Shown: in pieces, positions 4,381 to 55,987 of the stretch
How positions within the stretch are numbered: the stretch's first letter is position 1
How the letters are laid out: each line of letters begins with the position of its first letter
Assembly: GCA_023267635.1 (NCBI GenBank)
Contig: JAHFMX010000001.1
Span: 83,165-147,164, forward strand
DNA length: 64,000 nucleotides
DNA from: a bacterium
GTDB taxonomy: Bacteria > Patescibacteriota > Minisyncoccia > Phycocordibacterales > UBA5272
Reading direction: 5' to 3'
Program-made: the position numbers and the translations under genes
The notes under the pieces: model-generated
Told to the model about the DNA's origin: nothing
Database searches by the model: none
Seen by the model: only the letters and a program-made list of their open reading frames with translations

Positions 4381-5136
4381 ATGTTTAAAGATTCCTTAGA
4401 TTTTTTTAGAAATATTATTCTGGGGAAAGAAAATGATGTGGTAGTTTCGGCAGAAGATACTTTGAAGGAAAGAATATCATCTCCTTTCTATGGTTATTTT
4501 CTGATTTCTTGGATTATATTTAATTGGAAGTTTATTTATATAGCTTTTTTTGTAAGTGAAGAAAAAATTTTCCAAAAAACAGGACTATTGAGAGAAGAGT
4601 ATCTCTGGTTGAATTCACCAGTAGATGTTTTGGGGAATATTTTTCAATTTGTTCTATATCCGTTTATGTTCTCACTCTTTGCGATATTTGTTCTACCGTA
4701 CATTTCACAGCTCTTTTTTTGGAAAAGTGTACTCAATAAGAGAGCTCTATTAAATATTGAAAAAAGATTGAATGAAAAAATAGCGGAGAAAATTGATTCG
4801 GACACTAAAGTTATCGTAGCAGAAACTAAAAAAAAGGTAGCTGAAAAAAGTGCAGAAGCAGAAGCGCCAGAAGTTCTTTGGGAAAGAGAGTTCGAAAAAT
4901 TCAAAAAAAATATTCTTTATCTTGAATTTGGTAAAGTAATCTACAATTTTTATAAAGGAAATGAGTTTTCTATATCTGCCAGCATGGCTGCCTTTTTAGA
5001 TTTAAACGGACTGGGAAATGTTCAATTGTTCAACAGTAAGGTGGCATTAGAGGAGAAAGGAAAGTTTTTTGTAAAAAAATATTTGGAAATTAATCCGAAT
5101 GCTTTATTAATATCACCAGAGAATAGTTCTAGATAG
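4381..5136 (+). CDS. hypothetical membrane protein, very AT-rich
   Basis: 251 aa; two hydrophobic segments then a Lys/Glu-rich helical region; starts 2 nt after the gyrA stop; GC clearly below neighbours. Confidence 0.45.
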   Translation: MFKDSLDFFRNIILGKENDVVVSAEDTLKERISSPFYGYFLISWIIFNWKFIYIAFFVSEEKIFQKTGLLREEYLWLNSPVDVLGNIFQFVLYPFMFSLFAIFVLPYISQLFFWKSVLNKRALLNIEKRLNEKIAEKIDSDTKVIVAETKKKVAEKSAEAEAPEVLWEREFEKFKKNILYLEFGKVIYNFYKGNEFSISASMAAFLDLNGLGNVQLFNSKVALEEKGKFFVKKYLEINPNALLISPENSSR

Positions 5137-5213
5137 GTTAGCTTCTTAGAGTTTGCTGGTTGATAGCCTATCCACTACTTACTGTTCATCACCTGCTGCT
5201 ATACTGTACCCAT

Positions 5214-5735
5214 ATGTTTTTAACCCCAGACCATCTTGTTCGTGAATTATATTTGAAGCCAGGAGATCGCGTGGCTGATATTGGTTGTGGAACAGGAGCG
5301 TACACTATTGCGCTTGCTCGTGAAGTAGGAGATATGGGTCAGGTGTACGCGGTGGACGTACACAAGGATCAGTTACATACCCTCGCAAGCACACTTGAAC
5401 GCCAGAAACTTTTGAATGTTGAAATTCTCTGGGCGGATATCGAAAAAGGAATTCCTATTGATGCATATAGTTTGGATGCAGTTGTGCTCTCTAATGTTTT
5501 GTTCCAATTACAAGATATTGATGCAGCGCTTACGTATGTTGCAAAGATTGTAAAACCAGGAGGAATGCTGCTTGTAGTGGATTGGTCTAAGTCACACGCT
5601 GGTATTGGACCACATAGCTCTCACGTAGTAACAGAAGAACAAGCAGAAACATTTGTTCTGAAACATGGATTTCGTATGCAGAAAAGATTACCTGCAGGGG
5701 ACTATCACTACGCATTTATTTCAGTATCTGCGTAG
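5214..5735 (+). CDS. class I SAM-dependent methyltransferase
   Basis: Motif VADIGCGTGAYTIALA (GxGxG SAM-binding); start set at ATG 5214 because TATACT at 5200-5205 lies 8 nt upstream; the ORF track extends to 5160. Confidence 0.7.
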   Translation: MFLTPDHLVRELYLKPGDRVADIGCGTGAYTIALAREVGDMGQVYAVDVHKDQLHTLASTLERQKLLNVEILWADIEKGIPIDAYSLDAVVLSNVLFQLQDIDAALTYVAKIVKPGGMLLVVDWSKSHAGIGPHSSHVVTEEQAETFVLKHGFRMQKRLPAGDYHYAFISVSA

Positions 5736-5822
5736 TATCTGGGCTGGAAAATAAAGGCGGGAAGTAAGGGTTGAGGTTTTTGTCCACTACCTAGTACCCA
5801 TTACCTGCTATATACTGTTCTC

Positions 5823-7121
5823 ATGTTACGCACAATACTTCTCGGCGCTGGAATTTTCGCAGCTCTACTTTCTATATTAATATTCTCTGGGAAAATTCCT
5901 CTAGGGAACGCAAAAGATAAACCAGTAGGAGAGGTTGTCTTATGGGGAACTGTTGATGAGGTGCAAATGAATACGATAGTGCAGGAATTTAATCCGCAGG
6001 CCAAAACGTACCAAGTACGGTATACGGAGATTCCAGCAACACAGTTTAGTCAGAAGTTACTCGAAGCTCTAGCTAATGGAACAGGACCAGACATGATTAT
6101 TGTTCCTCATCAGCTTATCCTAGCGAATCAGACACGACTCTACCCATTTCCAATTGGCTCGCTATCAGAGAAGAAATATAAAGATCTCTATGTAGATGGG
6201 GCTTCGGTGTTGTTTACTCCATCAGGGGCGCTCGCACTTCCTGTGTCTATTGATCCGTTGGTTCTTTTCTATAACCGTACATTATTCTCTAAACATGGCA
6301 TAGTTAATCCTCCGCAGTATTGGGATGAGTTAGTAAACATGGTTCCACTCCTTACTATTCTTGATAGTCGTGGTCAATTTGTAGAATCCGCTATTTCTCT
6401 TGGTGCTCCAAATACACCGTATGCAAAAGAAATTCTTATGGCAACTGTGCAACAGCTTGGACAAACTCCAGTACTTAAGCAGTATCAGGAAGATGGTCAG
6501 TCGTATCTAAGTGTCACTGCGAATACTCCAGTTACGCAGGACGGTGAAGTGTTTCCACTAGCAACGGCTGCGCGATTCTTTACCCAGTTCTCAGATCCAA
6601 CAAAAAATACCTACACATGGAGTCAGTACGGAGGGAATGCAGAGGATCAGTTTGTGGCAGAAAAAGTTGCTATGTATATCGGACGAGCAAGTGAACTTGC
6701 GACACTTCGTGCACGTAATCCAAAGGCAGATGTAGAGATGTCATATCTTCCTCAGACGAGGGGGTACAATACATTTTCAACAACAGGACAAATGTATGCA
6801 ATCGGCACACTTAAGACAAGTAAGAATCTTGTAACGTCACTCACTATTGAGGGAGAGTTTGCGGGTGCTGGGGTTTCTCCTGCAATTGCGTCTCTTATGG
6901 GAACTGTTCCAGCACTTCGCGCGTATTCAAGTACTGAAGGCCTGTCTGATGTAATCGCTCGAAGTATGTTGGTCGCAAAACCTTGGTATGATAGTTTCCC
7001 AATCGAATCAGTAACACTCGTCTCTACCATGCTAGCTGACATTATAAGTGGAAGAGCGGGAGCGGCGGATGCGGCGGCGGACTTTGTATCTCGTTTGCAG
7101 GACCTGTATACTCCACTGTAA
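5823..7121 (+). CDS. membrane-anchored extracellular solute-binding-like protein
   Basis: 432 aa; N-terminal TM anchor then periplasmic-binding-protein-like sequence (LWGTVDE..QEFNPQ..); no adjacent permease or ATPase genes; TATACT 6 nt upstream of ATG. Confidence 0.4.
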   Translation: MLRTILLGAGIFAALLSILIFSGKIPLGNAKDKPVGEVVLWGTVDEVQMNTIVQEFNPQAKTYQVRYTEIPATQFSQKLLEALANGTGPDMIIVPHQLILANQTRLYPFPIGSLSEKKYKDLYVDGASVLFTPSGALALPVSIDPLVLFYNRTLFSKHGIVNPPQYWDELVNMVPLLTILDSRGQFVESAISLGAPNTPYAKEILMATVQQLGQTPVLKQYQEDGQSYLSVTANTPVTQDGEVFPLATAARFFTQFSDPTKNTYTWSQYGGNAEDQFVAEKVAMYIGRASELATLRARNPKADVEMSYLPQTRGYNTFSTTGQMYAIGTLKTSKNLVTSLTIEGEFAGAGVSPAIASLMGTVPALRAYSSTEGLSDVIARSMLVAKPWYDSFPIESVTLVSTMLADIISGRAGAADAAADFVSRLQDLYTPL

Positions 7122-7130
7122 TACTCAGCT

Positions 7131-8111
7131 ATGAAATCCTCTACCATGAAGACAGTTTTCCTCTCAATATTTCTTGCGACGGTGTTAGCTACTCTTTCGG
7201 TTTCTGGTGTGCAAGCTCAAACTCCTTCTATTGCGGGAGATGGTACATGTGGAGCAACTGCCGCGGACGTATGTACCCCTCAGGATTTAAAAGAAATGGG
7301 AAGGAAACTTCTCACTATGTTTGCATTGCTCGGTAGTGGAATACTGGTTGTTATCATCGGTATACGTTTAGTAACATCTATGTTTGCCTACATGCGGGGA
7401 GATGTTATGGCTATTAAAAAGGCAGGCGAAGCTGCATTTAATGCGGCGATCGGTTTCTTTATTGTGTTTGCGGTTGCTGGAGGAATATTCCTATTAGGAC
7501 TTAAATACCTAGGTGCTCAACCATGGGTGGGGCAACTGCTTCAAATGTTTTCAAGTGCGTTTGTAGAGACAGCGTATGCACAGGAAACACTTTTGCCCAA
7601 TCCGCTTGGATCAAACAGTGCGTATGATCTTATATTAGCTGCAATGAATCTTGCAATGAGATTCTTTATTTACCCAGGACTTATCGTAATGTGGGTAGCG
7701 TCAGGATTTAAGTTTATTTATTCACAGGGTAACCCAGAGGGGCTTAAAACTGCACGCAACTGGTTGTTTATGTCTTTTATTATTACGGTTGTTGCGTTTT
7801 CACTCCAGGCGTTTCTATTAGCTTTCCGTGCGACGGCAGAGAAGATCGTTCCTATAGAGAAGAGTCAGACTATCCCTGCACCACAGACCACATCTCCTCT
7901 TCCTACAAACACAAATACTCCTGTTGCATGTGGATCAATTGCAAGCGAAGTACAGCGCAACGCATGTTTTGCAGCACAAGCGGGGACGACGGATGGTCGT
8001 GGGAAGCCAGAACCTAAGACACCAGGAGCTGCTTGTGTTGTGGGAGGAATGAATGGTAGGTGGGTGGGGGATTCTCTTAACGGATATTGTGTTGCAGGAG
8101 GAAGCAGATAA
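7131..8111 (+). CDS. membrane protein with VirB2/TrbC-pilin-like core and Cys-containing C-terminal extension
   Basis: Signal peptide, multiple TM helices; segment VMWVASGFKFIYSQGNPEGLKTARNWLFMSFIITVVAFSLQA matches the helix-loop-helix pattern of the three small paralogs downstream. Confidence 0.45.
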   Translation: MKSSTMKTVFLSIFLATVLATLSVSGVQAQTPSIAGDGTCGATAADVCTPQDLKEMGRKLLTMFALLGSGILVVIIGIRLVTSMFAYMRGDVMAIKKAGEAAFNAAIGFFIVFAVAGGIFLLGLKYLGAQPWVGQLLQMFSSAFVETAYAQETLLPNPLGSNSAYDLILAAMNLAMRFFIYPGLIVMWVASGFKFIYSQGNPEGLKTARNWLFMSFIITVVAFSLQAFLLAFRATAEKIVPIEKSQTIPAPQTTSPLPTNTNTPVACGSIASEVQRNACFAAQAGTTDGRGKPEPKTPGAACVVGGMNGRWVGDSLNGYCVAGGSR

Positions 8112-8170
8112 TCCTTGTGGGTGGAAAATATGTAAGATACACTATAGACACTATTAACTTATACGCAGCC

Positions 8171-8914
8171 ATGAAAAAGATTCCTTATCTCCAAATTCTT
8201 CTCTTTATTTGTATTGTTAGTTTCGTTTCTATTCCTACGCTTGTGTTTGCTCAGGATGGTGCTGCTCAGATTAACAAAGGCTTTGATACATTTGGCGGAA
8301 TCATTACTAGATTTACTCAAACAATCGTTCGCTCACTTGCAACACTCTTTGCAACCGCGGCCATGGTTGCGTTTTTCTACGGCATCGTACAGTTCATCTG
8401 GGGGTCACGAGACGGAGATGCTACGAAAGCAAAGAATGGTAAGAATTTTATGCTGTGGGGACTCATTGCGCTTTTCGTAATGTTCTCAGTCTGGGGAATC
8501 ATTAACTACGCTCAGGGAATATTTGGTATCGCAGGAAAAAATACAATTGTTATCCCACAGATTGAATTAGGGAATGGTAAGACTCAAGCAGATCCAAGTT
8601 CACAGGGATTGCCAATACTTAGGACTATCTACTATTGTTCAGATGGAACGCCGTATTACAATCAGTCTGATTTCAAAACAGCCTGCGCTCCTGCTCCAGG
8701 GGGTTCATCATCAAATACAACTAACACAAATCCTTGTGCTAATGACCCTAATGGTTTGACGCAGTATGATCCTGAGAGTAAAGGATGTGTGCGACCTTCA
8801 TCGCCAGGAGGAACTACTCAAACACCATATACTTGTCCAGATGGAGTAACGCCGTATTATGCTCCATCTGACTTCTCAACGGTCTGTACAGGTAGTGCGG
8901 CAAGTGGCATTTAA
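8171..8914 (+). CDS. T4SS pilin-like protein (VirB2/TrbC topology) with Cys/Pro-rich C-terminal domain
   Basis: Signal peptide MKKIPYLQILLFICIVSFVSIPTLVFA, then two hydrophobic helices separated by a short GDATKAKNGK loop (FFYGIVQFIWGSRDGDATKAKNGKNFMLWGLIALFVMFSVWGII); paralog of 10461 and 10976; the ORF track extends upstream to 8087. Confidence 0.5.
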   Translation: MKKIPYLQILLFICIVSFVSIPTLVFAQDGAAQINKGFDTFGGIITRFTQTIVRSLATLFATAAMVAFFYGIVQFIWGSRDGDATKAKNGKNFMLWGLIALFVMFSVWGIINYAQGIFGIAGKNTIVIPQIELGNGKTQADPSSQGLPILRTIYYCSDGTPYYNQSDFKTACAPAPGGSSSNTTNTNPCANDPNGLTQYDPESKGCVRPSSPGGTTQTPYTCPDGVTPYYAPSDFSTVCTGSAASGI

Positions 8915-9129
8915 TTTTTCCGACATGTATAAATACAACTTACATCAACGTAAGTAGGCGTGCGTGGAGCGTCACTGAACTTAATTGTAGTCAGCAGAAG
9001 TCTACCTTTTAGAAAATTAGGGTTTAATTACCAGTATTGACAGAATCTTTTTGGTAACGTAGTGTAGAAAATGAAGGTACCGATACATGTCGGTTACTGC
9101 ATTCTTTTTCAACTCATTGGAGGTATTTT

Positions 9130-9888
9130 ATGACCACGAAAAGTGACCCAACGACAGGTGAAAAGACGTTTATGGAGTCTGTTCAGCAGGGTGGGCAACG
9201 CCCACCTAAAAGAGGAGTGGAGGACCATGAGGCAAGAAGGCCTCAAAGGCCAGCTCCTCCTCCCCATGGAACCGCGAGTGGTGGGCAACCTCCAACGCCA
9301 CCACCAGCTGTTCCTGGTGGTGGCGACAACGGAAAGTCTGGAGGTGATGAAGGTGGATCAGGGGGCGGGGTTAAGAAATGGCTGGAGGACAACAAGTTGG
9401 CCACGCTCTTTCTCGGACTTCTTCTGTTGACTACTTTTACTGCAATCGGCAATCAGATATGGGTGTACTATACCCGGCAAAGCATCCAATTGGTCAAGGA
9501 GCTCAACGACGCAGAGTCGTCTCCTGCCAAGGTTGCCGTGCCGCGTGTGGTTCCTGCCAAAATCCCTGTGCCGCCTGCAGTGCAATGTCAGTCGCCTGCA
9601 CCCGGAGCTACGCTTTTCTGGCAGCCACTATCTCTTTCACCAGGAAGCTGTGTGGAGCTTGCTCCACCAGCAAACGGAAGTATGTATTTTTGGGCGACAT
9701 TTTCTGCTGTCCCGAAATCCATGGAAGGCGTGTCTGAGATCAAGAGCGCGCGCGACGCAGGTGGACAGGACATTGTTCCAACAGGCGTTTGCCAAGGATC
9801 CAATTGTCAGGATTTCATCCGCAATCACTTGGGGCAAAGCTTGTTTGTGCGACAAGTTTCCAACCAAAACTTACATATCAAACTTTAA
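9130..9888 (+). CDS. Pro/Gly-rich membrane-anchored surface protein
   Basis: GGAGG 8 nt upstream; N-terminal PPPP/GGxGG low complexity, one TM (LATLFLGLLLLTTFTAIG), C-terminal Cys-containing domain; region GC about 55%. Confidence 0.5.
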   Translation: MTTKSDPTTGEKTFMESVQQGGQRPPKRGVEDHEARRPQRPAPPPHGTASGGQPPTPPPAVPGGGDNGKSGGDEGGSGGGVKKWLEDNKLATLFLGLLLLTTFTAIGNQIWVYYTRQSIQLVKELNDAESSPAKVAVPRVVPAKIPVPPAVQCQSPAPGATLFWQPLSLSPGSCVELAPPANGSMYFWATFSAVPKSMEGVSEIKSARDAGGQDIVPTGVCQGSNCQDFIRNHLGQSLFVRQVSNQNLHIKL

Positions 9889-9900
9889 AGGAGTATCTTC

Positions 9901-10284
9901 ATGTCACCTCCACCAGCAAAAACCACACCAGCCGCAGCCGAGAAGAAGGAGGATGAGAAGAAACCCGAGAAGAAGAAGTCGCTTGGTGAAAATCTTGCGA
10001 TGATCCTGCTCTCCATTCTCTTCATTGTCATTTTCCTGTATATCCTCAATCCGCTTTTGGGAATGGGATTTGACGCAAGCGCGCAGACGATACGAACGAC
10101 TGGCGATGGATTGCAAAGCAACGGGGTTGCCTTGATTCATGCAGGCATCGGCGCTGGGGTCTTCATGGCTGGACTTACCGGCTTCATCCTGAAGATGCTA
10201 CTCATCGCACTGGTTGTCGTCGGTAGTGCACTGCTCGCACGGCTTATTGTCGGATTGATGAAGCCAAAGGAAGCTCACCATTAA
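9901..10284 (+). CDS. Lys/Glu-rich N-terminus membrane protein
   Basis: AAAGGAG RBS; 127 aa with 3 hydrophobic helices; GC-rich like the upstream gene. Confidence 0.5.
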   Translation: MSPPPAKTTPAAAEKKEDEKKPEKKKSLGENLAMILLSILFIVIFLYILNPLLGMGFDASAQTIRTTGDGLQSNGVALIHAGIGAGVFMAGLTGFILKMLLIALVVVGSALLARLIVGLMKPKEAHH

Positions 10285-10313
10285 AAAGCCGTCATTTGCA
10301 CGTTACGCAATAA

Positions 10314-10388
10314 GGGGGTTTCTCACCTCCTGCATCACTCGGTATTACACCGCTTTGATGCGGGTCCGAGAAACCTCCTTTTCCTTTT
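10314..10388 (+). terminator. long-stem terminator / structured 3' element
   Basis: GGGGGTTTCTC (10314-10324) pairs with GAGAAACCTCC (10368-10378), enclosing an inner hairpin GCATCA..TGATGC, followed by a TTTTCCTTTT tract. Confidence 0.45.
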
Positions 10389-10405
10389 CCCCAATAAAGC
10401 TGGTA

Positions 10406-10422
10406 ATTCCTTGCAAAGGAAT
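10406..10422. promoter_or_regulatory. 17-bp perfect palindrome ATTCCTTGCAAAGGAAT overlapping the -35 of the pilin-like gene promoter
   Basis: 7-bp arms ATTCCTT/AAGGAAT around GCA; overlaps TTGCAA -35. Confidence 0.5.
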
Positions 10423-10438
10423 GGGAGAGCGCTATACT
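10411..10438 (+). promoter_or_regulatory. sigma70-like promoter TTGCAA-16-TATACT
   Basis: -35 TTGCAA 10411-10416, -10 TATACT 10433-10438, 16-nt spacer, 22 nt before the ATG at 10461. Confidence 0.5.
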
Positions 10439-10460
10439 TTATATATACATAATAAATAAT

Positions 10461-10862
10461 ATGAAAAAAGCTTTACAAAGAATTTCTGTCGCAGTGGGGG
10501 TTATGGCAACAAGTGTTTCACTTGCATTTGCTCAAATTACAATTGGAATCGGAACACAGCAGGGTCAGGTAAATGGTGGAGCGCTCCTCCAACTCCTTTC
10601 ACTCGCTCAAGAGATCATGAGTCGCCTTGTGCCGTTTGCTGTTACGCTCGCGGTGCTCGCGTTCTTCTGGTTCCTTATCAAGTTCATCTTTAAGTCTGGT
10701 GATGCTACAGGAAGAGCTGATTCACTTAAAGGTATGGGATTTTCTATCCTTGCACTTTTCGTGATGGTTTCTATTTGGGGTATTATCGGACTTCTCGGTT
10801 CTATCGTTGGAGTTGGACAAGGTGGAAATATTCCAATCCCAGGAGTTCCACGACCTAACTAA
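10461..10862 (+). CDS. T4SS pilin-like protein (VirB2/TrbC family topology)
   Basis: 133 aa; signal peptide MKKALQRISVAVGVMATSVSLAFA; two hydrophobic helices separated by KSGDATGRADSLKG; shares G-D-A-T..K..G..LFVM.S.WGII with the 8171 gene. Confidence 0.55.
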   Translation: MKKALQRISVAVGVMATSVSLAFAQITIGIGTQQGQVNGGALLQLLSLAQEIMSRLVPFAVTLAVLAFFWFLIKFIFKSGDATGRADSLKGMGFSILALFVMVSIWGIIGLLGSIVGVGQGGNIPIPGVPRPN

Positions 10863-10896
10863 TCTCAGAACTTTTTACAGATTTTCTTTGTACAAA

Positions 10897-10925
10897 CAAA
10901 ACACCCTCGAAAGAGGGTGTTTTGT
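10897..10925 (+). terminator. intrinsic terminator
   Basis: ACACCCTC-GAAA-GAGGGTGT perfect 8-bp stem followed by TTTTGTT. Confidence 0.65.
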
Positions 10926-10975
10926 TATATATACTCATGTATACTTATATACAATTACAAACAATCATATTACCT

Positions 10976-11227
10976 ATGTCTGGAGAACAAATTTTATCAA
11001 ACGTCGTTACTGAAATCTTCAGCCCGCTCTACCAAGCTGTTGTCGGTGTCGCTATTCTTTATTTTCTCTACGGTGTAGCAAAATATGTTCTTGATCTTAA
11101 TAATCCAGAAAAGCAGACATTTGGAAAGAGTCATCTTTTATGGGGAATGGTTGGACTCTTTATTATTCTTTCAGTCGGAGGGATATTAAGTGCTCTTAAT
11201 GAGTCACTTGGCGGAATGTTTAAATAA
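10976..11227 (+). CDS. T4SS pilin-like small membrane protein (paralog)
   Basis: 83 aa from ATG 10976 (the ORF track starts 10922); ILYFLYGVAKYVLDLNNPEKQTFGKSHLLWGMVGLFIILSVGGIL matches the helix-loop-helix pattern of the paralogs; no cleavable signal peptide evident. Confidence 0.45.
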   Translation: MSGEQILSNVVTEIFSPLYQAVVGVAILYFLYGVAKYVLDLNNPEKQTFGKSHLLWGMVGLFIILSVGGILSALNESLGGMFK

Positions 11228-11255
11228 AAAGCTAGTGTGCTAGAATGAGCAACAT

Positions 11256-12647
11256 ATGAACGGAACTGACATGAATGCAATGGAAAAAATCGTATCGCTT
11301 TGTAAGCGTCGAGGTTTTATTTTCCCTGGGTCTGAAATCTATGGAGGACTTGCTGGAACATTTGATTACGGGCCTCTTGGTGTATTACTCAAGAATAATA
11401 TTGAAAATAGTTGGTGGGATCATTTTGTTACCAATCGAGATGATATGTATGGAATTGACGCTGCTATTTTGATGAATCCACGAGCGTGGGAAGCAAGCGG
11501 GCACGTTGGAGGATTTTCTGATCCATTGGTTGAAGATCTTGAAACAAAGAAAAGATACCGAGCTGATCACCTTCTTGAAGCAAGTGGACACAGCGCCCTT
11601 GGCTTGAATCTTGAGGAACTTAATTCAAAAATCCAGGCACTAGCATTAGCTGGAAAGTTAGAAAATTCAGAGGGAACGGTGTTAAAGAAAATTGGCGAGG
11701 TACGACAGTTTAATATGATGTTTAAGACCCAAGTTGGAGCTACTGAAGATCCAACATCAATTTCCTATTTACGCCCAGAAACAGCAGGTGGTATGTTTGT
11801 TAATTTTAAAAATGTTGTTGATAGTTTCCACCCGAAACTTCCATTTGGTCTCGCTCAGATTGGAAAAGCATTCCGCAATGAAATTGCTCCTCGTGATTTT
11901 ATTTTTCGTCTACGAGAACTTGGACAGATGGAGATCGAATATTTTTGTCACCCTTCTAAATGGGAAGAGAGATTTGAACATCTTCGCACCGAGTTTCTTA
12001 CATGGATGATTTCTATTGGATTACCAGAATCAAAAATACATGAAGTGGAAATTGGGGATGGGGACAGAGCTCACTATAGTAAACGCACAATTGATTTTGA
12101 ATTTGATTTTCCTATGGGGCAGAAAGAACTTGCGGGGCTAGCTTACCGTACAGACTTTGATTTGAAGGCGCATAGCGAATACAGCAAAACTGACCTTTCT
12201 TATTTTGATGAAGAAACAAAAGAGCGATTTATTCCACACTGTATTGAACCATCTATTGGAATTGAGAGAACATTTCTTGCTGTTCTTTCGTCTGCGTATA
12301 ATGAAGAAGAGATTGACGGAGAAATTAGAACAGTGCTTCGTTTTAATCCAAAAGTTGCTCCAATCCAGATCGCGGTGCTCCCACTTTCGAAAAAAGAAGA
12401 ACTTTCAGTTCCTGCAGAAAAAATTGCTAAAGATCTTAAAAAGATTGCACGAGTGTCATATGATGAAACGCAGTCAATTGGAAAGCGATATCGTCGTCAG
12501 GATGAAATTGGTACACCATTTTGCGTGACCGTTGACTTCGATACGCTCACTGATAACGCCGTAACAGTCCGTGATCGCGATACGATGGAACAAGTCCGTA
12601 TCCCAGTGGCTGATTTAGCTTCTTATTTTTCAGATAAACTTGTTTAA
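11256..12647 (+). CDS. glyQS: glycine--tRNA ligase (dimeric class II form)
   Basis: 463 aa; KRRGFIFPGSEIYGGLAGTFDYGPLG and class II motifs; extended -10 TGCTAGAAT 9 nt upstream of ATG. Confidence 0.9.
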   Translation: MNGTDMNAMEKIVSLCKRRGFIFPGSEIYGGLAGTFDYGPLGVLLKNNIENSWWDHFVTNRDDMYGIDAAILMNPRAWEASGHVGGFSDPLVEDLETKKRYRADHLLEASGHSALGLNLEELNSKIQALALAGKLENSEGTVLKKIGEVRQFNMMFKTQVGATEDPTSISYLRPETAGGMFVNFKNVVDSFHPKLPFGLAQIGKAFRNEIAPRDFIFRLRELGQMEIEYFCHPSKWEERFEHLRTEFLTWMISIGLPESKIHEVEIGDGDRAHYSKRTIDFEFDFPMGQKELAGLAYRTDFDLKAHSEYSKTDLSYFDEETKERFIPHCIEPSIGIERTFLAVLSSAYNEEEIDGEIRTVLRFNPKVAPIQIAVLPLSKKEELSVPAEKIAKDLKKIARVSYDETQSIGKRYRRQDEIGTPFCVTVDFDTLTDNAVTVRDRDTMEQVRIPVADLASYFSDKLV

Positions 12648-12692
12648 GCGGTGGTTGCGTAGAGTTAAGAAATACTGTATAATATACACATT

Positions 12693-12854
12693 ATGGCAAA
12701 AGGACAGGATAATCTCATCCAATTAAAAAACAAGGAAACAGGCGAAGTCTACTGGACTTCAAAGAACAAGAAGCTTGTTACTCGAAAGATTGAACTTAAG
12801 AAGTATTCAAAGAAACTTCGTAAGCACATTACTTTCAAGGAAACAAAGAAGTAG
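12693..12854 (+). CDS. rpmG: 50S ribosomal protein L33
   Basis: 53-aa ORF MAKGQDNLIQLKNKETGEVYWTSKNKKLVTRKIELKKYSKKLRKHITFKETKK matches the L33 pattern MAKG...T.KNK......ELKKY......H..FKE.K; missed by the ORF track because under 60 aa. Confidence 0.75.
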   Translation: MAKGQDNLIQLKNKETGEVYWTSKNKKLVTRKIELKKYSKKLRKHITFKETKK

Positions 12855-12863
12855 TAGTCCCTA

Positions 12864-12892
12864 AAAATCACTGTCCAAAACAGTGATTTTTT
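12864..12892 (+). terminator. intrinsic terminator after rpmG
   Basis: AAAATCACTGT-CCAAA-ACAGTGATTTT then TT. Confidence 0.65.
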
Positions 12893-13061
12893 GTTAGTAT
12901 TCAGTGGTTGGAAGAAAAGCACTGTGTAGCATAGGGATGAGGCCCTGAAGCGAGTGTGTAGTTGTTCCCTTCAATGGGAATGGTTCATGCTATCGCATCG
13001 CCAGATGCCGTGGAGCCGCAATATGAAATACTCCCCTGTGGTTTTCTTTCAACACCACTTT

Positions 13062-13132
13062 GGGCCTATAGTTTAATGGTAGAACAACGGCCTCCAAATC
13101 CGTTGGTCGAAGTTCGATTCTTCGTGGGCCCG
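13062..13132 (+). tRNA. trnW: tRNA-Trp (anticodon CCA)
   Basis: Cloverleaf: acceptor GGGCCTA/TGGGCCC, D-arm GTTT-AATGGTA-GAAC, anticodon loop CTCCAAA (U33, CCA at 34-36), T-arm CGAAG-TTCGATT-CTTCG; 71 nt; classic rpmG-tRNA-Trp neighbourhood. Confidence 0.8.
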
Positions 13133-13218
13133 CTGAAATAAAAATACTGCACGCACTGTGCGGTGTTTTTATTTGTATTCCCCAGAGCATTTTTCTAAAA
13201 CAGGTTATACTTTAAAGC

Positions 13219-14274
13219 ATGGATAAAAAACTTCGTGTTGGTATTAATGGATTTGGTCGCATTGGTCGCGCTTTCTTTAAAGTTGCTGCACTTAGGGACG
13301 ATATGGAAGTTGTAGCAGTAAATGATTTAGGGGACATTCACAATCTCGCGTATCTTCTTCAGTACGACACAGTCTACAAAGTTGCGCCATATGACGTGCA
13401 AGCAGAGATTCATGACACCGAGCAATACCTCACAACTGGAGGTTCATTTGAATCACGTGTGCGAGTGTTTCAGGAAAAAGACCCTGCCGCTATTCCATGG
13501 GGAACACTTGATGTAGATGTTGTAGTTGAATCAACTGGACTCTTTACAGCGTATGACAAAGCTTCAGCTCATCTGAAAGGTGGAGCTAAAGCAGTTGTTA
13601 TTTCTGCTCCAGCAAAAGCAGGAGAAGATGAAAGTGTTAAAGGGGAAACAATTCTTCTTGGAGTGAATGAAGAAAAATTTGGAACATGCTCTGTTACTTC
13701 AAATGCGTCATGTACAACAAATGCTTCTTCTCCAATCATTGCGATTCTTGATGAGGCACTTGGTATTGAGAAAGCTATTTTAAATACTGTGCACTCTTAC
13801 ACTGCATCACAATCAATCGTGGACGGTCCAAATAAAAAAGATTTTCGTGAAGGTCGTGCAGCAGCACAGAATATTGTCCCATCATCCACGGGGGCGGCAA
13901 TTGCAGTAACAAAAGCATTCACATCGTTAGTTGGACTCTTCGACGGTATTTCAATCCGTGTACCAACTCCAGCAGGCTCGATTGCAGATATTACCTTTAT
14001 CTCAAAACGACCCACAACAGCTGAAGAAGTTAATAAGATATTACAAGATGCTGCAGCAACTGAGCGATGGTCTTCTATTTTCCAAGCTACAGAAGAGGAA
14101 CTTGTTTCAAGTGATATCATCGGACTTCCTTTTGCTTCTATTGCAGATCTTAAAATGACTCGCGTGGTTGGTGGTAACCTTGTTAAGGTTCTTGCGTGGT
14201 ATGACAATGAAATGGGGTATACGCATACTTTAGTAGAACATGTGCATCGTGTAGGGCAAAAGTTGGTCAAATAG
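13219..14274 (+). CDS. gap: glyceraldehyde-3-phosphate dehydrogenase
   Basis: RVGINGFGRIGRAFF N-terminus, SNASCTTN active-site region; TATACT 7 nt before ATG. Confidence 0.9.
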   Translation: MDKKLRVGINGFGRIGRAFFKVAALRDDMEVVAVNDLGDIHNLAYLLQYDTVYKVAPYDVQAEIHDTEQYLTTGGSFESRVRVFQEKDPAAIPWGTLDVDVVVESTGLFTAYDKASAHLKGGAKAVVISAPAKAGEDESVKGETILLGVNEEKFGTCSVTSNASCTTNASSPIIAILDEALGIEKAILNTVHSYTASQSIVDGPNKKDFREGRAAAQNIVPSSTGAAIAVTKAFTSLVGLFDGISIRVPTPAGSIADITFISKRPTTAEEVNKILQDAAATERWSSIFQATEEELVSSDIIGLPFASIADLKMTRVVGGNLVKVLAWYDNEMGYTHTLVEHVHRVGQKLVK

Positions 14275-14886: not shown

Positions 14887-15891
14887 ATGGAACATGCACC
14901 ATTTTCTAATCAAGGGTTAGAGCCAGAACGTTTAGAAAAGGAAGAGGGTTTGTGGGTTCAAAAAAGAGAACAAGTAGAAGATTTTCTAAAAAATGAAATA
15001 GATTTTACTGCCATAGGTGACATAATTGGGGAGATGTATTTTAAGTCTCGTCCCGACGCTCCAGAACGAGGACAAGATGATTTACGCAAGTATAGATTTA
15101 GTAATATTTATGATCCAAAGTATGAAGTGCAGTATGTTTATAGTGATAACGGTAAAGCTGTAACAGCTCAGGCTAAAAAGGGGAGAATACATTTCTCAGC
15201 ACGGTCTTTTTTTGAAAATAACGAACTGAATCGAGCGTTGCTGCTTCATGTAACTATTCATGAATTATGCCACCTCGCTTCTTTAACGGTTTCTTTTGAC
15301 TCAAAAACAGAACGCACGCAATTGAGCGGAGTATCATCCGTAACATATAATGTTCAAGCGTTAAGAGAGGATACTGTAGAGGGAAAAGATAAAGAATTAG
15401 AAGTATTATTTAGTGGGCTTAACGAAGGAATTACTGAGTTCGTTTCAGATGCGGTGTATAGTGAATACCTTGCGCGAACTGGTAAAGTTTTGGAAACTGT
15501 ATACCAAAAAGGATTTGTAACTAACGAGGTTCATGGTTTGATTGAAACACCAGTAACATATTATGATGAAAGAATTGCAGCTTACGAATTAATTGAAAAG
15601 ATAAGTCAGGAAAGTGAACTACCCATGGAGACCGTAACAGAAGGTTTCGTTCAAGCCTATTTAAGGAATGAACGACTTGATTCAGAAGACTTGTTAAGTT
15701 TTTTTGATGAAGATTCAAAAGCTGTATTATTTTTGAATAAATTAAAAGGTAATGATATTGCAAAACATGAGCACGATAAACAGCGTTTTTTGGTAGATAT
15801 TTTACCTAATACAGAAAGGATTTTTGTAAAGGCTTTATTTGGTAGAGATGTGGTTGGGACGTATAATAAGAATATAATAGAGTCTCTATAA
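14887..15891 (+). CDS. hypothetical protein with HExxH zinc-metallopeptidase motif
   Basis: 334 aa; HVTIHELCH motif; start 1 nt after the rpiB stop; no other recognisable domain. Confidence 0.45.
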   Translation: MEHAPFSNQGLEPERLEKEEGLWVQKREQVEDFLKNEIDFTAIGDIIGEMYFKSRPDAPERGQDDLRKYRFSNIYDPKYEVQYVYSDNGKAVTAQAKKGRIHFSARSFFENNELNRALLLHVTIHELCHLASLTVSFDSKTERTQLSGVSSVTYNVQALREDTVEGKDKELEVLFSGLNEGITEFVSDAVYSEYLARTGKVLETVYQKGFVTNEVHGLIETPVTYYDERIAAYELIEKISQESELPMETVTEGFVQAYLRNERLDSEDLLSFFDEDSKAVLFLNKLKGNDIAKHEHDKQRFLVDILPNTERIFVKALFGRDVVGTYNKNIIESL

Positions 15892-51103: not shown

Positions 51104-54100
51104 ATGCAAGAGATTAGTTGCCCTCCATTTTTTATATATAAGAAAATTCTAATCTCTACCCTTGTCTTCTTTATTGGTATCACTTCTGTAGAGGTTCACG
51201 CAGCATCAGATTTTCAGCAGAATTTAAACACCACATCTTCTGTATCTGGCAATAGAGATACATCTTTCCAGTATCCGTCACTTTCAAACCTCATCACCTT
51301 ACGTGTAGCCACCCCCTCTAAACACAACCTTTCTCTTCCTGGAACATCTAATCGAGAAATAGCTGTCGCAGGTCCAACTATCTCTCTCATTGGAAACGTA
51401 CAACCACGAGAACTTATTTTGCGTAATAGTGAATCTTCGTTATTTTCTTTCCCATCATTCTTTTCTCTTCAGATTACTAGATACAAAATGCCACGTCTTG
51501 CACAGATTGAACTGCTCCCAGTAAAAAAATATGTATCATTTGCTTTGGGTGCAAATACAGTGCGTGCAGCAGAAGAGCTTTCAACAAAAAAAGCATCTCT
51601 TCCTTTCATTGATCAATTGTCACTCTCTTTCTTTTGCGCACTTGCTCCACGCAAACAGGTCATTGATAGTAGACGCTGTGATTATCAAACACTTGCAAGT
51701 GGGCGACTTGATTTACCGTCTGGTCTTGCAACAAACATCAATCCATCGGCAGAAGAGCCCTCAGCAACAGAAGAATTACCAGCTCCAACTGAAGTAGCCA
51801 CAACAAACCAAACCCCACCTCTCTCTCCATCTTCACCAATCTACCTTACCCGCTACATCACCTCCTACATCGGCATCCCAGGTCCAGCAGGTAAAGATGG
51901 AACAGATGGTAAAGACGGAGTAAACGGTATCACGTCATCTGCACCAGAAGGCTATGGTTCCTACCTCATTCCATCGTACTCTTCTCCAGCAACATCAATT
52001 GGAGTTTCTACCATCTCCTACCTACGACAAACAACCATTGAACTTCCTGTCATTACAGGAGGTACTGCAACTAATTTGTCTCTCATCACACCAACGGTAC
52101 AAGGTGGAGTATTCAGTGGTCTCTCACTCTTCAATGACTCTGCATCATTCACTGGTTCAGTAACCATCAACAACCTTACAGCTACCTCAACCACAGTAAC
52201 CAATCTCACTGCAACTAACGCCACTACCACCACCGCATACATTGATGTCCTTACCGTAGGATCATCCACTGCAGGAAGCCTTACACTAAGTGGCACCTTA
52301 AACGTAGCAGGGACTTCAACGCTTGCAACTACTACCGCATCTTCTTTCACTGCAACCTACGCAACCACAACAAACCTCTTCACGCAGAATCTTTCTGTGG
52401 GTAATGCTTCAACAACAGGGAATCAATCAATTGATGGACAATTCAACGTATCAGGAACATCAACCCTTGGAGCAAAGGTTTTCCTTAACGGAAGTGTGGT
52501 AGTTGGTACTTCCACTGATGAACTGTTCACCGTAAACGCACTTGTTAACTCAAACATTACTCCATCTCAGAACATTACCTATGACCTCGGTTCTGCATCT
52601 TTCTACTGGAGAAACCTCTACGCTAACAACATTAACGTAAACAGTATCTCTGCTGCCTCAACCACCATCTCTGGAACATCTAACAATGACTTCATTGTGA
52701 ACTCAGACAATGGTTCCTCTGATGCTGAAGATGCTTCCCTTGTGTTCTTCCGCGGACTCTCTACACCAAATGCTCTCATACGTTGGAACTCTGCAACCAA
52801 GCGTATTGAATCCAACATGAGTTTCAAAGTACAAAACGAAACACCAACCACAGGAACCACAACACTCACCGTACAAGCAGGCGCAGGACAGTCATCGACC
52901 AATCTCTTCGAACTCCTTAACAATGCAGGAACCAAACTCTCTGCATTTACCTCACAAGGATGGCTAGGTATTGGAACTACCACTCCCTCTACATCTCTTC
53001 ATCTTACTACTAACGATGGACTCATCATTCCAGCAGGTACAACAGCACAGCGTCCAAGCACAACTCTCCCAGGTGTCATCAGATACAACACTACTAACAC
53101 TGGCTTTGAAGGATTCAATGGTTCTACCTGGGGATCTCTTGGTGGAGTAAGTGATGCAGATCAAAATACCTACATCTCAGCTGAGAACTCAGCTGGAGCA
53201 AACAATGATGAACTGAAGTTCTATACCGCAGGTACACTACGAGGCATCTTCTCCTCAACAGGGAACTTTGGGGTGGGGACGAGTACGCCAGGGGCGAAGT
53301 TGACAGTTGATGGTACTCTAACAGCTGGTGATACTGTTATAAGTGGATCAGGTAATGCCAATGGTCTTACTATTAAAAATGGAACCACGAACCAAGCATA
53401 TTCAGGTGGGTTGACTCTTGCATCAAATGATGGCACATCTGTAATCTCAAGAATGTATGCCTCTACAGCAGGTTTGTTTTTGTCTTATGGTGGTGCAGAT
53501 ATTGGAGCTTTCACTGGTAGTGGATTATCCATCGTAAGTGGGGCAACGTATAAAATTAACGGGGCAACAATCGCTCAAGCTTCCACCACCCTCAATAACT
53601 ACTTCTTTGGTAATTCTGGAAATTTGACGATGACAGGTAATTACAACACCGCAACTGGTTATACCTCTCTCTTCTCCAACACCACCGGCTCCTACAACAC
53701 CGCGAATGGTGCGCAATCCCTCTACTCCAACACCACCGGATCCTACAACACCGCGAATGGCAGCTATTCCCTCATCTACAACACCACCGGAAACTTCAAC
53801 ACCGCGAATGGCAGCTATTCCCTCCAATCCAACACCACCGGCGGTGCCAATACCGCGAATGGTTATGCTTCCCTCAACTACAACACCACCGGCTCCAACA
53901 ACACTGCAAATGGCAGCTATTCCCTCAACCACAACACCACCGGCACCCAAAACACCGCGAATGGTATGTATTCTCTCTACTCCAACACCACCGGATCCTA
54001 CAACACCGCAAATGGTTATCAATCCCTCAACTACAACACCACCGGCACCCAAAACACCGCGAATGGCATGAATTCTCTCTACTCCAACACCACCGGATCC

Positions 54101-55987
54101 TACAACACCGCGAATGGTATGTATTCTCTCTACTCCAACACCACCGGCACCCAAAACACCGCGAATGGTTATGCTTCCCTCAACTACAACACCACCGGCT
54201 CCAACAACACTGCAAATGGCGTGAACGCCCTCTTCTCCAACACTACAGGTAGTTTCAACACCGCTTTTGGCTACCAAGCTGGATACGGAGATGGAACTGT
54301 AAATCAAGCTTCTATTATAGACAATTACATGACCTTCCTTGGCTACCAAGCATCTCGTGATGCATCTGTTGCTTCCACAACAGCTCTCACTAACGGAACT
54401 GCTATCGGAAAGAATGCTAGAGTCGGTGCTTCAAACACTATTGTCCTTGGGGGTACTGGAGCAGATGCAGTGAATGTGGGGATTGGAACTGTTCTACCAA
54501 CATCTCGACTTAACGTTGTTGGAACAACTACACTTGTTGGATCATCAACCTCTTCTACTGCACTACACGTAATTGGAAATATTGATAACACAGCAACGAG
54601 TACGTTTGCACCGAGACTTATTTCTAGTCCGAGTACTGGAGTAAATCCAGGTTCAGTCTTCGTCTCTGGTCGTTATGCTTATACGGCGAATTTTAATGGC
54701 AACTCTATGTCCATCATCGACATCTCCAATCCAGCTTCTCCTGCAACTATTTCTACCCCAAGTACTGGGTCAGGATCAGGTTCGTATTCAGTCTTCGTCT
54801 CTGGTCGCTATGCGTATGTGGCGAATGTTAATACTAACTCTATGTCCATCATCGACATCTCTAATCCAGCTTCTCCAACAGTTGTAGCTACTTCAAGCAC
54901 TGGAGCTGGCCCATACTCAGTCTTCGTCTCTGGTCGCTATGCGTATACGGCGAATCAAAATGCTGGCACCATCTCCATTATCGACATTTCCAACCCCACT
55001 TCTCCTATAACAGTAGCTACTCCAAGTACTGGAGCTACTCCACGCTCCGTCTTCGTCTCTGGTCGTTATGCGTATGTGGCGAATAGCGGTGGCAGTTCCA
55101 TGTCCATCATCGACATTTCCAATCCAGCTTCTCCAGTTACCGTCTCTACTCCAAGTACTGGAGCTGGCCCACAATCCGTCTTCGTCTCTGGTCGTTATGC
55201 GTATGTGGCAAATAATGCTAGCAGCACCATGTCCATTATCGACATCAAAAACCCTGCATCTGCCGTCACAGTAGCTACTCCAAGCACTGGAGCTGGCCCA
55301 CAATCCGTCTTCGTCTCTGGTCGTTATGCATATGTGGCGAATAATAGTGCTAACACGATGTCTATCATTGACGTCTCAAATCCAAGTTCCCCAGTTACCG
55401 TCTCTACTCCAAGCACTGGAGCTGGCCCATTCTCAGTCTTCGTCTCTGGCCGTTATGCGTATGTGGCGAATAATAGTGCTAGTTCCATCTCCATCCTCGA
55501 CCTCGGTGGTATTGAATCCACTTCAGCTATTATCCATTCGCTTACTACCGGTAATCTTTCAGTTAACAATGACATCTTTGCAAATGGAAATATCGTAGCG
55601 AATGGGGGACTCACCATTGCAAGCGGATTCCAATCCCAAAATAACTCATCTGTGTATGGCTCGCTTAATGTTTCTACAGCAAACAGCGTGTCGCAGCTAC
55701 GTCTAGGTAAAACAAGTTCTGTGTATGCTGATCTAACGCTTGATAGTGGGGGAGATCTTACTTTCACCACAACTGGGTATAACGTTAAAGCAATGAGTAA
55801 CAACTTGTATATTTGTGATAATGCAGGATGTCCAACACTCACCGCTACAAGTACAGCAGGAAACATCTTTGTGGAAAATGCTCAAGTGTTCGGTAATAAT
55901 TTCTCTATTAACCAGACCTCTTCAACCTCTCTTGGTATGTTTGATCATAGTGGCTCACTAATTATGACGTTTGATGAAGCTCCATAG
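51104..55987 (+). CDS. giant secreted surface protein: signal peptide, short collagen-like triplets, Thr-rich beta region, about 13 copies of a 15-aa repeat, 8 LVIVD-type beta-propeller repeats
   Basis: 1627 aa; signal KKILISTLVFFIGITSVEVHA/AS; GIPGPAGKDGTDGKDGVNG; NTANGxxSLxxNTTGxx repeated; SPSTGxGPxSVFVSGRYAYVANxxxxSMSIIDISNPASP repeated 8 times (LVIVD-like). Confidence 0.7.
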   Translation: MQEISCPPFFIYKKILISTLVFFIGITSVEVHAASDFQQNLNTTSSVSGNRDTSFQYPSLSNLITLRVATPSKHNLSLPGTSNREIAVAGPTISLIGNVQPRELILRNSESSLFSFPSFFSLQITRYKMPRLAQIELLPVKKYVSFALGANTVRAAEELSTKKASLPFIDQLSLSFFCALAPRKQVIDSRRCDYQTLASGRLDLPSGLATNINPSAEEPSATEELPAPTEVATTNQTPPLSPSSPIYLTRYITSYIGIPGPAGKDGTDGKDGVNGITSSAPEGYGSYLIPSYSSPATSIGVSTISYLRQTTIELPVITGGTATNLSLITPTVQGGVFSGLSLFNDSASFTGSVTINNLTATSTTVTNLTATNATTTTAYIDVLTVGSSTAGSLTLSGTLNVAGTSTLATTTASSFTATYATTTNLFTQNLSVGNASTTGNQSIDGQFNVSGTSTLGAKVFLNGSVVVGTSTDELFTVNALVNSNITPSQNITYDLGSASFYWRNLYANNINVNSISAASTTISGTSNNDFIVNSDNGSSDAEDASLVFFRGLSTPNALIRWNSATKRIESNMSFKVQNETPTTGTTTLTVQAGAGQSSTNLFELLNNAGTKLSAFTSQGWLGIGTTTPSTSLHLTTNDGLIIPAGTTAQRPSTTLPGVIRYNTTNTGFEGFNGSTWGSLGGVSDADQNTYISAENSAGANNDELKFYTAGTLRGIFSSTGNFGVGTSTPGAKLTVDGTLTAGDTVISGSGNANGLTIKNGTTNQAYSGGLTLASNDGTSVISRMYASTAGLFLSYGGADIGAFTGSGLSIVSGATYKINGATIAQASTTLNNYFFGNSGNLTMTGNYNTATGYTSLFSNTTGSYNTANGAQSLYSNTTGSYNTANGSYSLIYNTTGNFNTANGSYSLQSNTTGGANTANGYASLNYNTTGSNNTANGSYSLNHNTTGTQNTANGMYSLYSNTTGSYNTANGYQSLNYNTTGTQNTANGMNSLYSNTTGSYNTANGMYSLYSNTTGTQNTANGYASLNYNTTGSNNTANGVNALFSNTTGSFNTAFGYQAGYGDGTVNQASIIDNYMTFLGYQASRDASVASTTALTNGTAIGKNARVGASNTIVLGGTGADAVNVGIGTVLPTSRLNVVGTTTLVGSSTSSTALHVIGNIDNTATSTFAPRLISSPSTGVNPGSVFVSGRYAYTANFNGNSMSIIDISNPASPATISTPSTGSGSGSYSVFVSGRYAYVANVNTNSMSIIDISNPASPTVVATSSTGAGPYSVFVSGRYAYTANQNAGTISIIDISNPTSPITVATPSTGATPRSVFVSGRYAYVANSGGSSMSIIDISNPASPVTVSTPSTGAGPQSVFVSGRYAYVANNASSTMSIIDIKNPASAVTVATPSTGAGPQSVFVSGRYAYVANNSANTMSIIDVSNPSSPVTVSTPSTGAGPFSVFVSGRYAYVANNSASSISILDLGGIESTSAIIHSLTTGNLSVNNDIFANGNIVANGGLTIASGFQSQNNSSVYGSLNVSTANSVSQLRLGKTSSVYADLTLDSGGDLTFTTTGYNVKAMSNNLYICDNAGCPTLTATSTAGNIFVENAQVFGNNFSINQTSSTSLGMFDHSGSLIMTFDEAP
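53640..54260 (+). repeat. tandem 45-bp coding repeat, about 13 copies
   Basis: Unit approximately CAACACCACCGGxxCCTACAACACCGCGAATGGxxxxxxxTCCCTC; encodes the 15-aa NTTGxYNTANGxxSL period. Confidence 0.85.
54600..55500 (+). repeat. tandem coding repeat of about 120 bp, 8 copies (LVIVD-like propeller blades)
   Basis: Recurrent GTCTTCGTCTCTGGTCGTTATGCGTATGTGGCGAAT...ATGTCCATCATCGACATTTCCAATCCAGCTTCTCC. Confidence 0.85.

Follow-up and report, generated by a model that had tools for sequence, protein, structure and literature searches.

What is the role of small membrane proteins, each built around a pair of hydrophobic helices, when their genes stand in series among the housekeeping genes of a patescibacterial chromosome? 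The question is raised by positions 7131–11,227 of a 64,000-nt stretch of contig JAHFMX010000001.1 (assembly GCA_023267635.1; the whole stretch is termed the window here), which hold six open reading frames (ORFs), all on the plus strand and designated genes A to F. We compared this locus with 78 related loci, each taken with 10 kb of flanking sequence on either side and labelled L001, L002 and so on—with L004, L005 and L002 serving as the references for sequence identities and for dN/dS, the ratio of non-synonymous to synonymous substitution rates. Four of these co-directional genes (A, B, E and F) encode five helical-hairpin, pilin-like domains, two of which are carried by A. Our preferred explanation, to which we assign a probability of about 0.6, is that the locus is a chromosomal array of VirB2-like pilins (family PF18895) feeding a Patescibacteria type IV secretion system (T4SS) that is encoded elsewhere and builds a host-contact structure. 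The array would thereby supply five distinct, non-interchangeable subunits: two fused in A, one with a variable disulfide-loop tail (B), one with a leader and no tail (E) and one devoid of a leader (F).

A conserved array of pilin-like hairpin proteins

Independent gene calls in related contigs gave near-identical products at positions A, B, E and F, bearing out the four plus-strand genes that a sequence-only reading of this DNA had placed at 7131, 8171, 10,461 and 10,976. The same reading had described a signal peptide in three of them and two helices joined by a short charged loop, and hydropathy analysis (Kyte-Doolittle, combined with inspection of the sequence) leads to the same picture. 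At the N-terminus, A, B and E carry a hydrophobic leader with a terminal motif of VQA↓Q in A, VFA↓Q in B and AFA↓Q in E (the arrow indicates the predicted cleavage point), followed by two long hydrophobic helices with a short charged loop between them, basic in each case; F has both hairpin helices and no leader. An AlphaFold2 model of B displays a leader helix and two hairpin helices at residues 38–81 (44 aa) and 84–117 (34 aa), with a predicted local distance difference test score of 83–91. Pilins of the type IV pilus were also considered as a candidate and rejected, as the leaders end in AXA↓Q, the G-F-x-x-x-E motif is absent and each protein contains two hydrophobic helices.

The sequence-only reading had pointed to two pilin families, and one of them, PF18895 (T4SS_pilin, with a gathering threshold of 26.6 bits), recognized F with 35.1 bits (E = 1.4e-8) and B with 26.9 bits—both above the threshold; A (19.4 bits) and E (15.9 bits) fall short of it. 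Paralogy within the array was supported by BLASTP for B and E (6e-12, 36% identity) and for B and F (2e-8), with pairwise identities among the paralogues of 13–36%. Gene A is far more distant than B, E and F are among themselves (E = 0.1 for A against B), and both of its halves appear to belong to the pilin family at the profile level only: hhalign paired domain 1 of A with the B family (87% probability, E = 4e-6, 71 columns), domain 2 with the B family (69%) and the two domains with each other (81%), and a loop motif, G-D/N-x-x, was in register in every profile comparison. Moreover, 12 of 42 A homologues have a precomputed PF18895 match. The earlier claim of four paralogues is therefore sound for B, E and F and has to be loosened for A, whose second hairpin had gone unnoticed; the conserved motif quoted at the time fits B and E well, F in part and A poorly. 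A hidden Markov model (HMM) of the B-family core, run against the six-frame ORFs of the window, retrieved no additional copy. The family NF045849 (Mbov_0395 pilin-like, cut-off of 40) scored F, B and E at 24.4 bits (E = 1.7e-5), 21.9 bits (E = 1.1e-4) and 17.0 bits (E = 3.4e-3), respectively, all far below the cut-off. Nearly all homologues are proteins of the candidate phyla radiation. One, from Candidatus Paceibacterota, is called 'pilin' by NCBI; where further homologues carry an organism label, it reads Paceibacterota or Nomurabacteria, and the closest species-level genome is a Candidatus Nomurabacteria metagenome-assembled genome (MAG) at 81% identity.

Co-directional arrays of four to six pilin-like ORFs, with a maximum of nine, were detected with our own HMMs in 62 of the 78 related loci. 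The gene order reads gyrA – methyltransferase – SBP (a solute-binding protein homologue) – A – B – (C-D) – E – F, and the approximately 35 closest loci contain an A-type gene, a B-type gene, one to three E-type genes and an F-type gene, in that order. Identities to L004, L005 and L002 were 91, 93 and 90% for A; 89, 87 and 62% for B, the tail of which is replaced in L002; 90, 88 and 90% for E (dN/dS of 0.22–0.24); and 96, 95 and 95% for F (0.06–0.08). The SBP gene, with identities of 99, 99 and 96% and a dN/dS of 0.02, is under the strongest constraint in the locus. The pilin genes, each with its own start, are under purifying selection (dN/dS of 0.06–0.24), which, together with the orthology of their positions, favours subunits with specialised roles over a store of interchangeable variants. 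Sequence affinities show the locus to be a mosaic produced by recombination, a breakpoint lying within the array; the identities of glycyl-tRNA synthetase (GlyRS) to the same three references were 73, 72 and 96%. Within positions 8171–12,647 of the window, B, C and D resemble L004 most, and glyS resembles L002 most (96% versus 73%).

Fused, tailed and interleaved genes

In the distant loci L055, L062, L074, L078 and L057, the halves of A occur as separate adjacent ORFs, each with a leader of its own. Residues A148, Y149 and A150 in the linker of A (nt 7572–7583) are invariant or nearly so across 43 fused family members, and in an alignment with L055 the sequence AYA↓Q151 falls on AVA↓Q, the cleavage motif in the leader of the stand-alone second pilin, after which both proteins share an NP[IL] motif. 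Given the separate genes in distant relatives and the aligned leader motif, gene A is, on sequence grounds, a fusion of two ancestral pilin genes that retains a signal-peptidase-like site, and the locus accordingly holds five pilin-like domains rather than four. The A148–Q151 stretch may be a relic or a still-used predicted site of the signal-peptidase-I type, and A is a candidate polyprotein that may be cut into two pilins at AYA↓Q. The protein also contains a C40/C48 pair ahead of its first hairpin.

Both Cys/Pro-rich C-terminal extensions noticed in the sequence-only reading were recovered, with four Cys in the tail of A and six in that of B. The six Cys of B are arranged as three loops of 16–17 residues (156–172, 189–206 and 222–239), of which loops 1 and 3 form an internal repeat, scoring 83 against 32.6 ± 7.1 in shuffled sequences (0 of 500 shuffles reached 83). 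In L002, an unrelated Cys-rich tail (L002 10,400–10,687) replaces that of B, and A, E and F are 90–95% identical to their counterparts in the window. The tail of B is thus a strain-variable element, and it is the only part of the pilin genes that varies in this way.

The two genes interleaved with the pilins had been described as encoding GC-rich, Pro/Gly-rich membrane proteins, and C and D indeed behave as real genes, with dN/dS values of 0.44 and 0.13, respectively, against L004. The C protein, with 28 Pro and 29 Gly in all, begins with a disordered stretch rich in these two residues, followed by a single transmembrane (TM) segment at residues 89–108 and a conserved four-Cys β-sandwich at residues 150–252; D combines a Lys/Glu/Pro-rich N-terminus with about three TM helices. 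The 9–10 kb bin is the GC-richest of the window (0.503), and the GC content at third codon positions of C and D amounts to 0.48–0.57, as compared with 0.26–0.34 in the neighbouring genes, so the GC enrichment does not merely reflect Pro and Gly codons. Strong Shine-Dalgarno sequences (GGAGG, AGGAG) are found only at C and D. C-D is a compositionally foreign cassette.

C-type genes were detected in 18 loci, and in the genome-scan loci they are located after the B-type pilin; D-type ORFs were found by jackhmmer in 16 loci (12 genome-scan loci plus exact or near-exact copies), each readable case lying between the B-type gene and the next pilin. A gap of more than 900 bp is present at this position in 18 of the 25 arrays that have such a gap. 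In L004–L007, C-type and D-type genes stand between B and E, with the copies in L005 and L006 only 34–40% identical to those of the window. In L001–L003 and L009, the slot is empty, and a C homologue plus an 88-aa gene are found inverted just downstream of glyS; the C-D cassette hence seems to be mobile within the locus. The inverted pair of L001 occupies positions 13,068–14,224 on the minus strand of that locus, with a C homologue of 291 aa. The number of C homologues recovered depended on the search procedure: a word-indexed search, swamped by the Pro/Gly-rich stretch, gave two, and an exhaustive search based on the C-terminal domain retrieved 12.

Several identities were examined for the interleaved genes. 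A VirB8/PrgL-like role of C is excluded by its C-terminal domain, which is a β-sandwich and not NTF2-like. D has no consistent Pfam family match, and its assignment as VirB3/PrgI-like is without Pfam or NCBIfam support, with an insignificant match to Mbov_0396 (E = 0.042). The idea that C-D is a mobile element bounded by terminal repeats was rejected, as no flanking direct repeats were found. The spacer between B and C contains a perfect 11-nt inverted repeat (8920–8930 and 9083–9093), partly retained in L004.

Known systems, genomic context and competing explanations

In the explanation that we prefer, A, B and E would be inserted via Sec (or YidC) and cut by signal peptidase I at AXA↓Q, and F would insert without a leader. 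Each hairpin would be embedded in the membrane, its two ends facing outwards and its basic loop the cytoplasm, a topology that would render the Cys-loop tails of A and B extracellular. A Patescibacteria T4SS encoded elsewhere—a monoderm, MPF-FATA-derived system with VirB4, VirB6 and VirB3—would draw on this membrane pool to form a structure, pilus-like or lining a channel, where the bacterium touches its host cell; the strain-variable tail of B could act as the exposed host-recognition part. C and D would form an accessory cassette, the former encoding a bitopic protein with an extracellular β-sandwich and the latter a small polytopic membrane protein.

VirB2-like pilin arrays of Patescibacteria, which are ultra-small symbionts, are already published (Wang 2023; Quinonero-Coronel 2025), and the present locus is a further example of them, not a new class of system. 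Quinonero-Coronel et al. 2025 (PMC12102498) describe a search of 3,035 Patescibacteria genomes with PF18895 and PF04956, in which VirB4 was detected in 2,417 of the 3,035 assemblies, VirB2-like pilins in 1,948 (near virB4 in only 1,135) and 441 VirB2-like pilin arrays of 2–11 genes in 383, with a paralogue identity of 25% on average and 54% at most. The published arrays and the one studied here have in common the PF18895 family, a low identity among paralogues (13–36% in our case), a chromosomal location and pilins that are often not beside virB4; the present locus differs in belonging to Paceibacteria (Nomurabacteria-type) and in its fixed gyrA – methyltransferase – SBP – array block. In Southlakia epibionticum ML1, predicted pilin subunits lie inside a T4SS cluster (SEML1_0006–0019) shown to be essential by transposon sequencing (Wang et al. 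2023, PMC10633639). Both series comprise several VirB2-like subunits that resemble one another in structure and differ in sequence, in a monoderm bacterium of the candidate phyla radiation and with no relaxase context. However, the pilins of S. epibionticum are embedded in the T4SS cluster and experimentally essential, whereas our array stands apart from T4SS genes and is known from its sequence alone. Within the limited collection of literature text that was searched, neither an SBP gene beside the array nor a double pilin or a cassette such as C-D is mentioned, which is no proof of novelty; the fused pilin with its invariant signal-peptidase-like site, the swappable tail of B, the foreign C-D cassette and the upstream SBP may be new details.

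Compared with the canonical VirB2/TrbC pilins (Agrobacterium T-pilin and RP4 TrbC) and the F-pilin TraA, the proteins of the array share the leader, the two hydrophobic helices with a short charged loop and a mature core of approximately 70–90 residues; unlike them, they have no adjacent virB3-virB4 and no outer membrane, and they include two members with long Cys-loop tails and one tandem fusion. In nine reference plasmids, virB3 follows virB2 in all nine, and a VirB1-type or other T4SS gene precedes it in eight; the array is instead bordered by the genes for the SBP and GlyRS, not by an operon of the virB1-virB2-virB3-virB4 type. The Mbov_0395 family, found in integrative and conjugative elements (ICEs) of Mycoplasma, offers another parallel, its hairpin protein of 80 residues belonging to a monoderm system of the MPF-FATA type, with no ICE context in our case. 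According to a 2025 review, Patescibacteria systems are unique among those of monoderms in their potential to make pili (PMC12857230).

A number of results weigh against the explanation of the locus as a T4SS pilin array. The 'T4SS_pilin' label is itself a context-based annotation. PF04956 (TrbC/VirB2), the second family to which the sequence-only reading had pointed, matched none of the six proteins at E ≤ 1. Against a reference profile built from nine plasmid genes annotated as VirB2 or TrbC/VirB2, hhalign gave a probability of 13% for the B family (E = 0.002, helix 1 only) and 0.1–0.5% for the domains of A, and a reversed-sequence control yielded nothing. The proteins are members of PF18895 that are VirB2-like in architecture only, not by sequence membership. 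A Foldseek search of the PDB with the B model returned generic helical hairpins, none of them at E < 1 and no pilin among the 50 matches listed—the fold being too simple to discriminate—and the B-family profile had no match at E ≤ 10 among PDB sequences. In line with the earlier remark that VirB4 and VirB11 are missing from the window, no VirB4, VirB6, VirB3, VirD4 or VirB11 domain was found among its scanned ORFs (at least 100 aa, covering all large ones and most of the rest), and T4SS genes are missing for at least 7 kb upstream of the array and 53 kb downstream of it. The relative L087, which covers 10 kb upstream of the window start, contains ftsZ, ftsA, hisS, lepB and pth and no T4SS genes. 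In 77 of the 78 related loci, no T4SS gene occurs within 10 kb of the matched pilin; the sole exception, L023 (MAG JAYVXX01), has a lone B-type tailed pilin and not an array, with the gene for a VirD4/TraG-type ATPase of 904 aa 2.5 kb upstream (L023 4758–7472 and 9992–10,969), on a different contig from the five-gene array L027 of the same MAG. The co-occurrence of an array and of a pilin near such an ATPase in this MAG counts, in turn, in favour of the T4SS explanation. Reviews state that a T4SS pilus has yet to be reported for a Patescibacterium (PMC12857230), and it is the published base rates, and only these, that make the presence of a T4SS in this genome plausible.

A rival explanation is that the hairpins are not pilus subunits and instead form a T4SS-independent membrane complex with the upstream SBP, e.g., an unconventional uptake or receptor complex whose membrane part would consist of the five two-TM hairpins together with C and D. 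Of 67 arrays, 60 have an SBP homologue pointing in the same direction less than 600 bp upstream, and all 24 distant arrays with sufficient flank have one upstream; in the window, a 9-nt spacer separates it from A, and its nearest solved structures are sugar-type SBPs (E = 3e-6). The strong constraint on this gene and the scarcity of T4SS genes near the arrays, both indicated above, fit such a complex, as does the orphan state of the SBP, with no ABC permease or ATPase beside it. However, gyrA is kept upstream almost as often (22 of the 24 distant arrays), so that the SBP linkage is indistinguishable from plain deep synteny, and we know of no transporter made of such hairpins. PF18895 members are also found inside the essential S. 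epibionticum T4SS cluster (PMC10633639) and near virB4 in 1,135 assemblies (PMC12102498). We regard this explanation as unlikely, if the most serious of the alternatives. A bolder reading would see SBP – fused pilin – tailed pilin – (C-D) – small pilins as a self-contained, class-wide Paceibacteria module for the capture or uptake of host nutrients around an orphan sugar-type SBP, with or without a distant T4SS; A would be cut at AYA↓Q into two subunits, and the mobile C-D cassette would provide an exchangeable host-binding β-sandwich adaptor. This proposal is speculative, and we consider it distinctly doubtful.

Host-dependent bacteria whose pilin genes have multiplied in tandem and diverged are also known from Bartonella and Anaplasma, with VirB2 paralogues that are thought to vary antigenically. 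Along the same lines, and in keeping with the pilin reservoir proposed in the sequence-only reading, the array could store interchangeable variants for antigenic or host-range variation, as these paralogues or the pilS cassettes of Neisseria do. The high divergence of the paralogues, the swapping of the B tail between strains and the mosaic affinities (B 89% identical to L004 and 62% to L002, with GlyRS at 73% versus 96%) are compatible with this idea, and host-strain versatility is proposed in the discussion of pilin arrays in PMC12102498. The reservoir is nonetheless disfavoured and, in our view, improbable: positions A1, A2, B, E and F are orthologous across genomes (A-B-E-F in approximately 35 of them), each with its own architecture (a Cys pair, an NP motif, a tail or the lack of a leader), which points to a division of labour rather than to variation. 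All genes are complete and under purifying selection, variation is confined to the B tail and no repeats able to drive cassette exchange occur within 8850–10,520, the only stretch of the array scanned for them. The paralogues of Bartonella and Anaplasma, moreover, are canonical diderm VirB2 proteins. A final alternative, that the resemblance is an artefact of hydrophobic composition among generic small membrane, holin-like or DUF proteins, could draw on weak sub-threshold matches to holin and DUF families (e.g., Phage_holin_3_6, E = 0.11) and on hairpins that give no specific fold match. With two genes above the curated PF18895 threshold, the G-D/N-x-x motif in register, a silent reversed control, no phage genes nearby and a family conserved across the whole class, this explanation is largely refuted and very improbable indeed. 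The holin assignment in particular was rejected, having that one match at E = 0.11 and no phage context.

Patescibacteria account for a considerable part of bacterial diversity and spend their lives attached to other microbes; in the sole species tested, their T4SS and its unusual pilin series are essential. The Paceibacteria set—five subunits in a fixed order, away from ATPase genes and behind an SBP—provides handles for structure modelling, proteomics and host-range studies. Should the link to the SBP be functional, it would further be relevant to the proposed role of the apparatus in taking up material from the host.

Features of the locus and its surroundings

Table 1. Features of the pilin-like array and flanking elements, in window coordinates (nt) unless residues (aa) are indicated.
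Feature	Position	Strand	Evidence
SBP homologue, 432 aa, N-terminal hydrophobic anchor or leader	5823..7121	+	PF01547, PF13416
Gene A, 326 aa: leader, C40/C48, hairpin 1, linker, hairpin 2, tail	7131..8111	+	PF18895 19.4 bits (domain 1), hhalign
Gene A, hairpin domain 1	7278-7526 (aa ~50-132)	+	
Gene A, linker site A148-Y149-A150 followed by Q151	7572..7583	+	Conservation, alignment to L055
Gene A, hairpin domain 2	7593-7856 (aa ~155-242)	+	
Gene A, Pro/Thr/Cys tail with 4 Cys	7857-8108	+	
Gene B, 247 aa: leader, hairpin core, Cys-loop tail	8171..8914	+	PF18895 26.9 bits, AlphaFold2
Gene B, leader	8171-8251	+	
Gene B, hairpin core	8276-8536	+	
Gene B, predicted extracellular Cys-loop tail	8537-8911	+	
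Gene C, 252 aa, non-pilin, bitopic	9130..9888	+	
Gene D, 127 aa, non-pilin, small polytopic membrane protein	9901..10284	+	Hydropathy
Long hairpin with T-rich run, terminator-like, at the end of the C-D cassette	10312..10380	+	RNA fold, inverted repeat I2
Gene E, 133 aa: leader and pilin hairpin, tailless	10461..10862	+	BLASTP to B
Perfect 14-bp stem-loop between E and F, intrinsic-terminator-like	10895..10926	+	RNA fold
Gene F, 83 aa, leaderless minimal pilin hairpin, final gene of the array	10976..11227	+	PF18895 35.1 bits

The two nucleic-acid hairpins listed in Table 1 were identified by inspecting the spacers and then folding them. The one that closes the C-D cassette has a predicted stability of -39.1 kcal/mol (z = -5.8), and the stem-loop between E and F, which is unique in the window, one of -25.2 kcal/mol (z = -7.0), with 0 of 200 shuffles equally stable in either case. 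The presence of two strong hairpins after D and E suggests that the array is transcribed as several separate units, predicted to be SBP-A-B, C-D, E and F-glyS. A scan for consensus promoters and terminators gave counts that were not above those of shuffled sequences and missed both strong hairpins, and an Rfam scan of positions 5000–13,400 detected tRNA-Trp only. This tRNA gene (CCA, 13,062–13,133) and rpmG (L33, 12,693–12,854) are located between glyS and gap, an ordinary arrangement.

Housekeeping genes are found throughout the window, including gyrA, the methyltransferase gene, the SBP gene, glyS, gap, rpiB, uvrABC, nrdAB, dnaE and rnj. Upstream of the array, between gyrA and the methyltransferase gene, positions 4381–5136 contain a very AT-rich ORF of 251 aa (GC content of 0.30) that matches no family. 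L004 and L005 have a NUDIX gene here and L001 has nothing, which marks the site as a variable insertion slot. Downstream, an ORF of 334 aa without a Pfam match (14,887–15,891) lies between rpiB and rpe and is absent from this position in L001 and L002. Finally, two large putative surface proteins are encoded further along the window, both of them candidate adhesins: one of 1,627 aa with LVIVD repeats (51,104–55,987), in a region of strongly negative GC skew, and one of 1,131 aa with LamG, SPRY and DUF7483 domains (58,415–61,810).

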